This document shows, piece after piece, positions 3,194 to 11,067 of a stretch of DNA of 11,811 nucleotides. The stretch lies in UHGV virus genome UHGV-1871853; one strand, written 5' to 3'. Numbering within the stretch: position 1 is the first letter of the stretch; the number at the start of each line of letters is the position of its first letter. Origin of the DNA: a virus. The position numbers were made by a program, and so were the translations under genes. The notes beneath the pieces were generated by a model, which saw only the letters and a list, made by a program, of their open reading frames with translations, had not been told where the DNA came from and searched no databases.

Positions 3194-3801
3194 GCGGCCT
3201 CACTTCTGCTATTTCGCAGGTCTTTGAGTTTCTGTTGGTACTCTGCCTTGATCGCCTTGCACTCTTCGACAGTCCAGCGATGGCGGTTATGGTTTGATTC
3301 GATTTCGTCTACTGCTTCCTGCCCGATTCGGTTAATCAGTTCGACGCGATACGGAACGAGATTTCCGCTTTTATGCTGGTTGCACACCACGCATTGCTTG
3401 TGAATATTGCGTTCATCAAATCGGAGTTGAGGTGCCGCAGCAGTTGTCCGGTAATGTCCAGCATCCCACTGAGCAGACGTGAGCGTTCCGCACGAGATAC
3501 ATGGTAAGTCGCGGTCTCTTTCTCTGATGAAGGCGTTTACGGCTTGTTGGGCTTGTTTAATCCAGTAACTGCGGGGCTTTAAGGCGAGTTTTCGAATCTT
3601 AAGTTTATCTTTCTGTTTCTGCTCCTCTCGTCGTCGTTTCTTCTCTGCTGCTTTTTCCGCTTTTTCGCGTTCTTTACTTCGTCGTTCGAGTGCTATCTTG
3701 GCTCCACACTCTGGAGAGCACCACCACTGATTAGCGAATGTAGGGTGAAACCATTCCCGACATTCTTCGTTTTTACATCGTCTTCGCGCTGGTTTAGCCA
3801 T
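3190..3801 (-). CDS. ninG: NinG / Rap recombination endonuclease (203 aa)
   Basis: [44 protein letters not shown]... matches lambda NinG (Rap) with its N-terminal Cys cluster. Start overlaps the ninF stop. Confidence 0.9.
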
Positions 3802-3970: not shown

Positions 3971-4349
3971 TATTGACGTCCTGCATCATGAGGAAGACAA
4001 TCATGGCGGCGCGGAGAGGGTTTTCATCTTGAGTCATATGATATGGGGTACTATCACTGCCAACTTTTCTATGCGCTGCCTTCCATAATCCATTTTCTGG
4101 CGCTGGAATAATGCCAATTCTGTTCTCTACGATAATCGGATCTGCGTCTGCTGGGTTTGCGCATGGGTTAAAGGATCCGCGCTCAACTTCTACTTCAACT
4201 GCGTCTCCGTTTACAATGTCTCCCTCAAATGAGACAAACACCATATCTCCATTCTCACCTTCTTTGTAATCCGGTGATCCGTTATGAATGGCTTCGAATA
4301 CCGCCACGTTAATTTCAAAATCACTTAACTGTGAATAATCCATTGTCAT
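3963..4349 (-). CDS. Acidic hypothetical protein (128 aa) between ninE and ninF, in the position of P22-type ninX
   Basis: Start taken at the ATG in an ATGA overlap with the ninE stop ([24 protein letters not shown]...). Lambda has no gene between ninE and ninF. Named NinX-like only by position and by memory of P22 gene order. Confidence 0.6.
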
Positions 4350-6683: not shown

Positions 6684-8060
6684 TCATACGTCAGCCCCTT
6701 GTGCATATCGCCTGCCACGTGCAGCGGGTGCATTTGATGTTGTGCAAATCTGTCTGGCTTCATCCTGGTCACATGCAACAAAGTGTCCGTTACAGAACCG
6801 CTGGTAAACCGTACCAAGCGAGCCAAAACGGTTTTTCGTCACAATGATTTCAGCAAATGGCGCGGCGCTACTGTTCTCGTCATATACCGCTTCCCGATAG
6901 AGCATGATGATTGAGTCTGCGTCCTGCTCAATGCTTCCTGAATCACGCAAATCTGCGTTTGTCGGGCGTTTGTTTGGTCGCTTCTCAACATCGCGCGAAA
7001 GCTGACTCAGGGAGATAACCGGTGTTTTCAGGTCTTTCGCCATCGCCTTCAGGCTTCCGGAGATGTGAGCAATTGCGAGGTCGTTGCGGTCTGCTTTCGG
7101 CTTCTCAATCAGGCCAAGATAATCCGCCATGATGAGTGAGAGGTTTGGATTTTCCTGTTTGTGCCGTTCTGCGATTGAGCGTATTTCTTCGACCGATAAC
7201 CGCGAGGCATCGACTACCCATACATCCAAATCTGCAAGCTGACTCATGCCGTTAGCAACACGCGCCCAGCCTTCGTCATCCATCGATGCAGGATTTCGCA
7301 GTACGCTAACCGACATCCTCCCGGCGTTGGCAATGCTTCGCTCTGCAATCTGCAATGCGCTCATTTCCATCGAGAAAATCAACACTCCTCGCCGGACGTC
7401 AGAACCAGGAATAACGCGGCTTGCAACGCCTTCGGCAATCTTCAGCGCCAGCTCGGTTTTCCCCATACCAGGACGAGCAGCGATTATCACCAGGTCTTCT
7501 GCGTTCATCCCTCCGGTGATGGCGTCAAGTTCTTCTATTCCGGTCTTCAGGGTATCTGACTCTTCTCCGTTCCTCAGACGCCTGTCAAGCGTGTCGGTGT
7601 AGTCAGTGATGATTTTCCCTAAGCGTACCGGTTTAACCTCGTCACGGGGCTTTCTGATGGCTGAGAGACGCTTTACAAGTTCATCCATCGCCTGACTCGA
7701 TGCGTCGATGGTTCCGCTTTGGATTGGTTCACGCATTTCATCCATGATTTCCAGCACCAGACGGCGGTGATAGTTATCCGCGACCATTCCGGCATATCCC
7801 TTCAGGTTTGCGGCACTCGGGCAGTTTTTGCTGGTCATCAGGATTGACGTGAAATGCTCCTCTCCGCACTCCTCGGCAACCATCAGCGCGTCGATTAGGT
7901 TTCTGTTTCGCGCCTGCTTGCGGATAACCTCGAAGGCTTTCCGGTAGAGCGGAATTGAAAACGCTTCCGGCTCCAGCGTTGCCAGAACGTCGCTGGCGGT
8001 TGGTGTTAATCCACCAATCAGCAGGCCACCGATAACGCTCGCTTCGATATCCTGTCTCAT
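6684..8060 (-). CDS. Replicative DNA helicase, DnaB family (458 aa), in the position of lambda P
   Basis: Walker [13 protein letters not shown], a DnaB-like N-terminal domain and RecA-fold C-terminal motifs ([28 protein letters not shown]). Lambda P is not a helicase, so the replication module is not lambda-type. Stop overlaps the upstream gene start. Confidence 0.95.
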
Positions 8061-9004
8061 GCAATCCCCCTGTCTGCAAACTTCCCTTCCCGTACTCCCG
8101 TTAACGAATCTTCCCTCAGCAGGTAATCAAAATCAGCCGTCCAGCCCGTGTCGTTGTCTCCGAAGTAAAACGGCTTGGCCTGATGCACAAACGCCCTGAC
8201 ATACGCTCTGAAACCGTCCACATTTGGCGTTTTCAGTTGCGGGATGATTTTCTTCAGGCGGCGTTTGCGTTTCTCGTTGACCGCAACAGCGTGTGGAAGT
8301 CTGTCACCGACTTCGGTGTTGTAGGCGTTCAGGAAGGATTCGTAGTCGATTCGTTCTGCCTTGCGACGTTCAGGTTTAACCTGCCCATCGCCTCCCCCAT
8401 TGGGGGGTAGGGGGGTATTATTTATATTCTTGTTAATACCTTCTTGTTCATGATGTGCGGTTGTTTGTGCGGCTTCATGTGCGCTTTCATGTGCGGAACG
8501 TACGCTGAAAGCCGCGCCATTACTGGCTTCATCATGTGCGGCATCATGTGCGGTTGTTTGTGCGGCTTCATGTGCGGGTGAATTGTCCATTTTTTGAGCA
8601 TATTCATGGTAATTTGTGATGGTGATCACACAACCTTTTTGCTTCTCCCCATCAATAGAGATCATCCCCTCTTTCACAAAAACCTGAAGCATCCGCTCAA
8701 CCTGATCACGGCTTGCCGGCTTGCCATGTCTGTCGCATAACTGAAGACCTAAATCAGCTGCTGTCACAACCAGTTGACCGGGTTGCAGATGCCATTCATG
8801 ACCTTTGAAATTCGATTTGTATGGCTTTCTGGCGGCATTCAGGAGAAGGTTTTCCCACAGGGTGCGAAGATAAACATCTTTCGCCCATGACTGTTTCAGA
8901 ATGCTCCGGTACAACGGAATGTAACCAGTTTTCTGGTTCTCCATCCTGTTGCTCCTGCGCTCGTGTGCGGCGCTGAAATCGTAGATTTTTGCTGTATTGC
9001 TCAT
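8057..9004 (-). CDS. Replication initiator, O-like (315 aa), containing the iteron origin
   Basis: The N-terminus [17 protein letters not shown] resembles the first residues of lambda O (MTNTAKILNF, from memory). The central region encodes a repetitive [10 protein letters not shown] linker that coincides with DNA iterons, and the 3' end is overlap-coupled to the helicase gene. Confidence 0.85.
8393..8445. promoter_or_regulatory. Origin-associated AT-rich element (8416-8445) preceded by a G/C-rich near-palindrome CCCCCATTGGGGGGTAGGGGGG (8393-8414)
   Basis: tattatttatattcttgttaatacc follows the iterons in the direction of O transcription, the same order (iterons then AT-rich unwinding region) as ori-lambda. 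Confidence 0.6.
8449..8577. repeat. Iteron array of the replication origin: eight ~12-bp repeats with core TGTGCGG in two blocks of four, separated by 30 bp
   Basis: Cores at 8454, 8466, 8478 (variant TGTGCGC), 8490, 8535, 8547, 8559 and 8571. A ~36-bp unit (catgatgtgcggttgtttgtgcggcttcatgtgcg) occurs twice. The array lies inside the O-like gene, as ori-lambda lies inside O. Confidence 0.8.
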
Positions 9005-9006
9005 AA

Positions 9007-9279
9007 CTACCTGCCTTGACGAAAGACCTTAAGAACATCGTTAAACTGACTTACGGATATGTCTTCTTTGAGCAGCTTTTCCAGAAATGCGTTTGGAATG
9101 AACGTATATCCCTCCTCTTTTGGTAGAGACGGGAGCAACGCCCTCGCCTCAGCCTTCAGAAGCTCAGTTCTGGCAACTTTCACAAAAGAGATTTGAGTTC
9201 TTTCATCAATGGAACGAAGGAAGCGCAAACGCTTAGCTTCTTTGTGTGTATCAGGTGGATTAAAGCCTTTGTTTCGCAT
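9007..9279 (-). CDS. Hypothetical protein (90 aa) inserted between cII and the O-like gene
   Basis: Start taken at the internal ATG at 9279 with a GAGGTAATTAT Shine-Dalgarno: MRNKGFNPPDTHKEAKRLRFLRSIDERTQISFVKVARTELLKAEARALLPSLPKEEGYTFIPNAFLEKLLKEDISVSQFNDVLKVFRQGR. The longer listed ORF from 9552 overlaps cII and is rejected. In lambda, O follows cII directly. Confidence 0.55.
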   Translation of the reverse strand: MRNKGFNPPDTHKEAKRLRFLRSIDERTQISFVKVARTELLKAEARALLPSLPKEEGYTFIPNAFLEKLLKEDISVSQFNDVLKVFRQGR

Positions 9280-9290
9280 ATAATTACCTC

Positions 9291-9357
9291 GCTGGATGTT
9301 GTTAAAATTCCATTTGTATTTGATCAGAACGCTCGGTTGCCGCCGGGCGTTTTTTAT
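9291..9357 (+). ncRNA. oop: oop-like antisense RNA with its promoter and terminator (t_oop), antisense to the 3' end of cII
   Basis: The plus strand carries GCTCGGTTGCCGCCGGGCGTTTTTTATT (9331-9358), matching lambda t_oop: a 6-bp stem GCUCGG/CCGGGC followed by U6. A perfect -10 TATAAT lies at 9279-9284 with a weak -35 TGGATT at 9256-9261. The 5' end is inferred from promoter spacing. Confidence 0.7.
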
Positions 9358-9595
9358 TGGTGAGAATCGAAGCAACTTGTCGTGCCAATCGGGCCATGTC
9401 GTCGTCAACGACACCCCATTCAAGAACAGCAAGCAGCATTGAGAACTTTGGAATCCAGTCCCTCTTCCACCTGCTGATCTGCGACTTATCAACTCCCACA
9501 GCTTCCGCTGTCTTCTCAGTTCCAAGCATTGCGATTTTGTTAAGCAACGCACTCTCGATTCTTAGAGCCTCGTTGCGTTTGTTTGCACGAACCAT
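9302..9595 (-). CDS. cII: Transcriptional activator CII (97 aa)
   Basis: From the ATG at 9595: MVRANKRNEALRIESALLNKIAMLGTEKTAEAVGVDKSQISRWKRDWIPKFSMLLAVLEWGVVDDDMARLARQVASILTNKKRPAATERSDQIQMEF, near-identical to lambda CII. The upstream extension of the listed ORF is rejected. Confidence 0.96.
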   Translation of the reverse strand: MVRANKRNEALRIESALLNKIAMLGTEKTAEAVGVDKSQISRWKRDWIPKFSMLLAVLEWGVVDDDMARLARQVASILTNKKRPAATERSDQIQMEF

Positions 9596-9610
9596 ATGTA
9601 AGTATTTCCT
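9573..9610 (+). promoter_or_regulatory. PRE-like promoter with CII-binding direct repeats TTGC-N6-TTGC (9573-9586), antisense within the cII 5' end
   Basis: The plus strand reads TTGCGTTTGTTTGCACGAACCATATGTAAGTATTTCC, as in lambda PRE (from memory), directing transcription toward cro-antisense and cI. Confidence 0.7.
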
Positions 9611-9674
9611 TAGATAACAATTGATTGAATGTATGCAAATAAATGCATACACCATAGGTGTGGTTTAATTTGAT

Positions 9675-9714: not shown

Positions 9715-11067
<1,353 letters not shown>

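Follow-up and report, generated by a model that had tools for sequence, protein, structure and literature searches.

The locus described here raises a question: does the gene for a phage replication initiator also contain the origin at which its product acts? The stretch of DNA analyzed (the window, 11,811 nucleotides of the UHGV virus genome UHGV-1871853) carries, in reverse orientation, the part of a lambdoid (P22-like) prophage that is responsible for immunity and replication. Within its O-like initiator gene lies an array of short repeats, which a sequence-only reading had taken for the iterons of an origin arranged like that of phage lambda (ori-lambda). Judging from sequence comparisons, positions 8393–8577 are very probably the replication origin of this prophage, situated within its own initiator gene and bound by the initiator that this gene encodes.

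The heptamer TGTGCGG occurs eight times in the window, compared with 1.71 ± 1.23 copies in shuffled sequences, and none of 200 shuffles reached eight. Seven of the exact copies form the array with a strict period of 12 base pairs (bp), at 8454, 8466, 8490, 8535, 8547, 8559, and 8571; the eighth unit of the array is a variant, TGTGCGC (8478–8484). Thus, of the eight TGTGCGG iterons in two blocks of four that had been proposed, the array and the blocks stand, whereas the exact core is present in seven units and the gap between the blocks, given as 30 bp, measures 33 bp (8529–8497). The eighth exact copy lies outside the array, at 8964–8970 in the leader region near the 5′ end of the initiator gene (CCGCACA on the minus strand), and is no more than chance would give (1.7 per window). 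Written along the coding (minus) strand, the units have the form CCGCACA(T/A)NNNN (12 bp; seven exact and one variant). They correspond to codons ~143–186 of 315, with the coding regions of the N-terminal domain (N-domain) and the C-terminal domain (C-domain) on either side, and the translation confirms that they encode a repetitive, Ala/His-rich linker of the initiator. The gene and the parts of the array are as follows.

8057–9004, minus strand: initiator gene, 315 amino acids, phage O family (Pfam and PHROG matches, AlphaFold2 model).
8530–8577, minus strand: iteron block 1, the first in the direction of transcription, with the units CCGCACATGAAG, CCGCACAAACAA, CCGCACATGATG, and CCGCACATGATG.
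8497–8529, minus strand: inter-block spacer of 33 bp; the resulting start-to-start jump of 45 bp is found in essentially all homologues, with any repeat class.
8449–8496, minus strand: iteron block 2, with the units CCGCACATGAAA, GCGCACATGAAG (variant core), CCGCACAAACAA, and CCGCACATCATG.

The spacer also contains a degenerate ninth unit, GCGTACGT (8498–8505, minus strand), 9 bp upstream of block 2 and out of phase. In 13 of 80 close relatives from IMG/VR this position carries the repeat core CGCACA, and the unit there is presumably GCGCACAT. Database entries for "partial replication proteins" in the +1 frame (PRIT.. and PHIK.. peptides) were considered as an alternative reading of the repeats and rejected: they start after the A6 run at 8595–8590 and end early. 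The frameshifted database proteins (P0018, P0020, P0022, P0028, and P0040) are probably homopolymer sequencing errors at this run (8590–8595). Many further database entries for the initiator protein are truncated in or near the repeats.

Downstream of the repeats along transcription lie two further elements, the first of which had also been noted in the sequence-only reading.

8416–8451, minus strand: AT-rich, purine-skewed element, ATGAACAAGAAGGTATTAACAAGAATATAAATAATA, the presumed DNA-unwinding element and the least stable 36-bp duplex.
8393–8415, minus strand: G/C-rich boundary element, CCCCCCTACCCCCCAATGGGGGA, homologous to the right end of the annotated P22 origin.

No other 36-bp duplex in the 11.8-kb window is as unstable as the AT-rich element, which has a free energy (ΔG) of −37.0 (mean −49.0, standard deviation 3.3). 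It is 81% A+T and, on the coding strand, 72% purine (83% A+T over the 30 bp 8416–8445), and it contains two copies of ACAAGAA 14 bp apart. An inverted repeat, CCCCC(AAT)GGGGG (8406–8394), bounds it. The G/C-rich element is also present in P22, Salmonella phage S.Inf 5-2, Enterobacter phage ENT1, and the loci L040 and L050, despite differing C-terminal domains and encoded peptides. The order of iterons, AT-rich element, and inverted repeat is that of the annotated lambda and P22 origins, and the likeness to ori-lambda therefore holds. Homologues with a lambda-type C-domain (L037, L038, and others) carry the lambda palindrome, GTCAGAGAATTC / GAATCCTCTGAC, at ~nt 500–545 of the initiator gene (563–590 in lambda, L063). 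In a variant family of this palindrome, which encodes SRNSDESRN and not SENSDESSD, both arms are altered together, GAG to CGG and CTC to CCG; these paired changes suggest that the lambda-type inverted repeat is itself under selection.

The geometry of the array is conserved well beyond the window. Homologues were collected with an N-domain alignment against one genome per bacterial species, which gave 59 loci in Enterobacterales with N-domain identities of 42–82%; records of Klebsiella, Yersinia, Enterobacter, and Salmonella phages were added. All 56 full-length homologues in this set share the spacing 12, 12, (12), 45, 12, 12, (12): two blocks of two to four direct repeats with a 12-bp period and a 45-bp jump, followed by GAACAAGAA and the AT-rich run. 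The number of repeats varies (3+3 in most homologues, or 4+4), and so does the core. The core CCGCACAT is shared by the window, Klebsiella and Yersinia phages, and some Xenorhabdus loci; CCGCGCAT or CCGAGCAT is found in Citrobacter, Enterobacter, Atlantibacter, and others, GATGAACC in Pantoea loci and phage S.Inf 5-2, GAGGTAACAAAC in Xenorhabdus and Photorhabdus loci, and GTCGAA in phage ENT1. The core co-varies with the N-domain clade, and the linker peptide shifts with the core (AH.., DEPSEEPS, EVTNEVTN), which bears out the proposal that the DNA site and the protein linker are coupled.

Which of the two is the conserved object can be read from synonymous positions. In 47 genes, we located the repeat units from the protein sequence only, as A-H or E-H dipeptides of the linker. 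The codon preceding a unit ends in C in 252 of 254 cases, whichever of P, A, T, S, or G it specifies; in the rest of these genes, C accounts for 20–38% of such third positions. Alanine within the units is encoded by GCA or GCG in 212 of 213 cases (GCC and GCT make up 60% elsewhere), glutamate by GAG in all 49 (40% elsewhere), and histidine by CAT in 253 of 262 (53% elsewhere). In Salmonella phage L, the corresponding repeats have an 11-bp period, so that successive repeats are read in three frames (CPTD / VQRM / SNA). The fixed synonymous sites and these three-frame repeats together identify the DNA core C-C-G-C/A-A/G-C-A-T as the conserved object; judged by codon usage, selection at the repeats acts on the DNA and not on the peptide.

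A second conserved DNA element occupies the spacer.

8510–8526, minus strand: central element, CCAGTAATGGCGCGGCT, 17 bp, kept in all repeat classes and in phage L.

This element is conserved in all 58 distinct homologous sequences irrespective of repeat class, and phage L matches it at 16 of 17 positions. Its third codon positions carry 0.97–1.66 bits of information, compared with 0.63 for the N-domain in general (0.51 for its conserved four-fold codons), and the third base stays while the encoded residues vary. The element follows the N-domain family and neither the repeat specificity nor the C-domain. Two other interpretations of it were rejected. The first was a spacer hairpin, GAAGCC / GGCTTC, around the central element, in which the third pair would be C opposite C in at least 19 of the 58 sequences. 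The second was a site dispersed over phage genomes. Three near-copies with two to three mismatches do occur in the window (7405–7421 and 3562–3578 on the plus strand, 268–284 on the minus strand), compared with 0.03 expected, and the near-copy in the helicase gene is also present in phage CUS-3. However, CUS-3 (40 kb) has the origin and helicase-gene copies only, and there are ~4 stray matches in 286 kb of other loci. Other phages and loci thus show no enrichment, and the near-copies in the window are probably due to chance.

The initiator protein belongs to the Phage_rep_O family (Pfam PF04492, E 4.5e-15, 56.4 bits against a cut-off of 28.7) and matches PHROG 345, "replication initiation O-like" (E 3e-99), so that the array does lie inside an O-like gene. 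A winged-helix Phage_rep_O domain (amino acids ~21–135; the Pfam match ends at 132) is followed by the linker that coincides with the origin (~141–205) and by a C-domain of the P22 gp18 type, which starts at ~195. BLASTP found no significant N-domain similarity to P22 gp18, and to lambda O only in the leader MSNTAKI (E 0.004); with the repeats differing as well, these comparisons favor a distinct initiator–iteron specificity, as the sequence-only reading had suggested. The N-terminus MSNTAKI (8984–9004, minus strand) resembles MTNTAKI of lambda O, and the remainder of the N-domain is unrelated. In lambda O, the N-terminus is a recognition signal for ClpX. Some homologues are annotated with a start 20 codons later, at MENQK.

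In the AlphaFold2 model (mean predicted local distance difference test score 76, ~90 in this part), a helix at 82–88, a helix at 99–111, and a β-hairpin wing at 115–129 compose a predicted winged helix-turn-helix, with residue 100 predicted to lie at the start of the recognition helix. The best matches in a Foldseek search of the PDB are winged-helix DNA binders (CRP/Vfr, CodY, and MarR), all weak, and no solved structure of a relative was found by sequence. The residue in question is encoded as follows.

8705–8707, minus strand: Asp100 codon; this residue is second in the predicted recognition helix and is a candidate for determining specificity at iteron base 6.

Residue 100 (the S-R-D column) separates the repeat classes without exception: D with CCGCACAT in 16 of 16 sequences, H with CCGCGCAT in 31 of 31, Q with GATGAACC in two of two, and K with GGTAACAAA in seven of seven. 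Base 6 of the core follows the same residue, being A with Asp (16/16) and G with His (31/31). The chemistry of hydrogen bonding is reasonable, with Asp accepting from the amino group of adenine and His donating to guanine. Residue 82 comes close to the same separation. On a neighbor-joining tree of the N-domain, A- and G-type cores are interleaved, and two nearest neighbors at 86% identity, L020 (Asp, A) and L028 (His, G), differ in type; this points to at least two to three independent switches, or to recombination of domain and sites as a unit. A scan of IMG/VR returned alleles ~98% identical only and added no diversity to this comparison.

The two halves of the origin also travel separately. 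Klebsiella and Yersinia phages combine the same N-domain and repeats with a C-domain of the lambda O type and the lambda-type palindrome, and in the Yersinia phage the gene downstream of the initiator is annotated as replication protein P. Conversely, phage S.Inf 5-2 has a C-terminal module near-identical to that of the window, including the G/C-rich element, together with a different N-domain and GATGAACC repeats. The exchange point lies within the AT-rich run. These natural swaps describe the origin as a two-part mosaic: the iterons go with the N-domain, and the AT-rich run and inverted repeat go with the helicase-recruiting C-terminal part.

How such an origin would work can be outlined from its parts; binding of the initiator, its stoichiometry, unwinding, and delivery of the helicase are what we infer. 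The N-terminal winged-helix domain would bind the eight head-to-tail 12-bp iterons (core CCGCACAT), with Asp100 at the start of the recognition helix reading core base 6. Two protein arrays, kept in register by the 33-bp spacer, would form an O-some-like complex and strain the neighboring DNA; the 36-bp AT-rich element (8451–8416) would then melt, with the G/C-rich inverted repeat as the boundary on the far side, and the P22 gp18-type C-domain would bring the phage's own DnaB-like helicase to the opened origin. A bolder version of this scheme, which we offer tentatively as possible but doubtful, would make it a distinct class of lambdoid origin. The winged-helix domains would polymerize head-to-tail, one per 12-bp repeat (~1.14 helical turns), in two arrays 45 bp apart around CCAGTAATGGCGCGGCT; this element would itself be recognized by a host factor or a conserved initiator surface, and one residue would largely decide the specificity (Asp100 for A, His100 for G). 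If so, repeat specificity could be reprogrammed by a single substitution.

The working unit might be larger. Lambda and Stx-phage O proteins act as dimers (PMC7466680), and if one initiator dimer occupied two neighboring 12-bp half-sites in tandem (24 bp), the 4+4 units would form four pairs, that is, four dimer sites comparable to the four iterons of lambda. In several homologues, alternate units are indeed better conserved, as in the Yersinia phage (CCGCACAT / CCGCACTT / CCGCGCAT) and in Citrobacter loci (CCGCGCAT / CCGAGCAT). However, the blocks of most homologues hold an odd number of units (3+3), and all units of the window are about equally good; moreover, there is no dyad symmetry, and head-to-tail half-sites would demand an asymmetric dimer. 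We therefore consider dimer sites rather unlikely.

A different possibility is that the repeats bind the initiator chiefly for control, through autoregulation of transcription or through handcuffing and copy control of the kind known from iteron plasmids, and not for opening of an origin. Direct-repeat arrays are typical of plasmid control iterons, and the window contains the further exact core at 8964–8970, near the 5′ end of the gene. Yet that single stray 7-mer fits chance, and the array stands directly beside the least stable duplex and the right arm of an origin of the P22 type, a position that makes control as the chief function quite improbable. A control role alongside origin function may be added. 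It is scarcely credible that the repeats are only a slippage-generated, low-complexity Ala/His-rich linker with the origin elsewhere: they are in frame, would make a plausible flexible connection between domains, vary in number, and occur in deletion variants, but their synonymous and neighboring-codon positions are fixed far beyond codon usage while residues vary, those of phage L are translated in three frames, their position and the AT-rich and inverted-repeat elements beside them match the annotated P22 origin, and their core co-varies with a recognition-helix residue.

On the other hand, several observations weigh against an origin bound in the manner proposed. The repeats of the window are direct, without the dyad symmetry of the lambda and P22 iterons; no inverted repeats or dyad symmetry were found in 8380–8620 by a search that does find them in the iteron regions of lambda and P22. 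Given this lack of symmetry and the dimeric state of lambda-type O proteins (PMC7466680), the binding mode is not simply transferable from lambda. A 12-bp period leaves little room for each winged-helix domain, and one of the eight units has a variant core. Natural in-frame deletion variants have just three units: a 93-bp deletion between the blocks gives an initiator of 264 amino acids (positions 1540–1600 of L068, from the chromosome of E. coli N54, and L132, from IMG/VR). In-frame deletions of iterons inactivate the lambda origin, and the natural deletion resembles these. The fold-search matches are all weak (best E 4.6e-3), and the co-variation of residue 100, seen on a neighbor-joining tree of 121 amino acids, may be due in part to joint recombination of N-domain and iterons. 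Finally, binding or replication data for this repeat type were not found in the open-access literature, and the origin of phage L, the closest layout, is itself putative (PMC8022706).

The surrounding genes are as follows; the helicase gene comes after the initiator gene, as in P22.

10034–10666, plus strand: LexA/CI-type repressor gene.
9302–9655, minus strand: cII gene.
6684–8060, minus strand: DnaB-like replicative helicase gene of the P22 gene 12 type (DnaB_C, E 9e-78; DnaB N-terminal domain, E 1.8e-13).

The helicase gene directly follows the initiator gene, with its start overlapping the stop codon of the latter. An open reading frame of 90 amino acids (9007–9279, minus strand; PHROG 2519, E 2e-57) separates cII from the initiator gene. 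A strong terminator-like hairpin at 9326–9353 on the plus strand, antisense to the 3′ end of cII, occupies the position of the lambda/P22 oop terminator and has no Rfam match; no Rfam families were found in the window at all. No promoter-like sites were found within 8000–9400, and no DnaA boxes near the origin; the only two TTWTNCACA matches in the window, at 4330 and 10805, are the number expected by chance.

The initiator gene is 96–98.5% identical to those of phages CUS-3, JEP4, Gally, HF4s, and Kapi1 and of 48 Stx2a-converting phage records, which are probably the O121:H19 "Eru2" phages of PMC8951638. The origin segment of this allele is present in 281 of 5,426 complete E. coli genomes (~5%). 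This is a common replication module of E. coli and Stx2a prophages. We found no description in the open-access literature of the CCGCACAT repeats, the conserved geometry, the central element, or the residue-100 relation, and a search for the repeat sequence together with "iteron" gave nothing relevant. Two papers on replication typing of Stx phages (PMC8044961 and PMC8951638) do not mention iterons or an origin of replication, a paper on phage epsilon-34 (PMC2629481) mentions CUS-3 and origin binding and does not describe the repeats, and no origin is annotated in the GenBank record of CUS-3. Because in-gene origins are textbook knowledge for lambda, the existence of an origin here is unsurprising, and its value is practical and comparative. 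It is a natural experiment on the co-evolution of an initiator and its sites where the sites also code for the initiator, with four cores, one geometry, swapped modules, and a relation of one residue to one base. That relation offers a direct and cheap system for swapping specificity, and the central element is a second concrete lead.

Comparison with the gene 18 origin of P22, which the sequence-only reading had recommended, shows homology on one side. The P22 origin (GenBank BK000583, rep_origin 32840–32984) likewise lies in the linker-coding part of the initiator gene. Its AT-rich run, like that of the window, is 81% A+T and 72% purine (lambda is similar) and has two repeats 14 bp apart, in P22 13-mers; it is followed by ACCCCC(Y)TACCCCC...GGGGG, with the annotated feature running through ACCCCCTTACCCCCTAAAGGGGG; the window is homologous from the AT-rich run onward, inverted repeat included. 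The C-domain of P22 gp18 is 52% identical to that of the window at the amino acid level, and a DnaB-like helicase gene (gene 12) is directly downstream in both. In contrast, P22 has four repeats of ~20 bp (TCGGTAAAAC.. / ..TTTACCGA) with dyad symmetry where the window has eight direct repeats of 12 bp, its N-domain differs, and it lacks the central element CCAGTAATGGCGCGGCT. Since homology is limited to the C-terminal side, origin and protein are each divided: they are of the P22 type in the right half of the origin and in the half of the protein that recruits the helicase, and of another type in the left half and in the DNA-binding half.

Lambda shares a Phage_rep_O initiator, in-gene iterons followed along transcription by an AT-rich region and an inverted repeat, and the MTNTAKI / MSNTAKI leader. 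It differs in having four annotated palindromic iterons of 18 bp, ~20–24 bp apart, and a different right-arm palindrome (GTCAGAGAATTC / GAATCCTCTGAC), and in its partner, the P protein, which recruits the host DnaB. The window has what marks a lambdoid in-gene origin, namely position in the gene, an O-family initiator, at least four repeats, an adjacent AT-rich asymmetric element, and a bounding inverted repeat, with the exception of dyad symmetry within the iterons. The origins of the Stx phages 933W and P27 also lie in the O gene, where the encoded linker grows longer with additional iterons (Kozlowska et al. 2020, PMC7466680); there are six iterons, four of which are strongly bound in vitro (PMC7466680). 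These phages are a precedent for the iteron–linker coupling in the window and differ in their lambda-type iterons and P partner (PMC7466680).

Iteron plasmids are a more distant parallel, and the window departs from them in its 12-bp period, in having its repeats inside the gene, and in having no DnaA box near the origin. In plasmids, the iterons measure ~17–22 bp (about two helical turns) and are located outside the rep gene, usually together with DnaA boxes. Their origins (RepA, pi, and TrfA systems) combine direct-repeat arrays, winged-helix initiators, and an adjacent AT-rich unwinding element (review, PMC5043065).

Lambdoid initiators of different specificity carry different iterons in their own genes (PMC8022706), and the closest counterpart of the window is Salmonella phage L, for which this origin layout has already been proposed: six imprecise 11-bp repeats in gene 18 are its likely origin (Zaworski et al. 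2020, PMC8022706). The feature annotated there (MW013503, rep_origin 31650–31726) consists, as in the window, of direct repeats (three), a spacer with CCAGTAATGACGCGGCT, further repeats (three), and an AT-rich run. The initiator of phage L shares the broad N-domain type, and downstream of it there is likewise a gene for a DnaB-like helicase. Phage L differs in its unrelated core, TGTCCAACGGA, in its 11-bp period, and in having 3+3 units instead of 4+4, and in a tblastn search at E 1e-3 its N-domain was too diverged for detection. The published layout of phage L, like the direct, non-dyad nature of the repeats, the central element, and the inverted repeat at 8393–8415, was absent from the sequence-only reading. 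Its parts (two blocks of direct repeats of 11–12 bp, a spacer with CCAGTAATGRCGCGGCT, and an AT-rich run) are all found in the window (8577–8416, compared with nt ~390–520 of gene 18), and the same layout holds in the 58 distinct homologous sequences. A distant homologue, ORF30 of Lactobacillus phage phiAT3 (L066; 32% N-domain identity), has four to five contiguous 11-bp GTCAATCAA repeats in the same place (~nt 345–400), followed by a purine-rich run and a DnaC-like partner gene. With these repeats in a phage of a Gram-positive host, the design of short direct repeats within the initiator gene reaches well beyond the enterobacterial phages.

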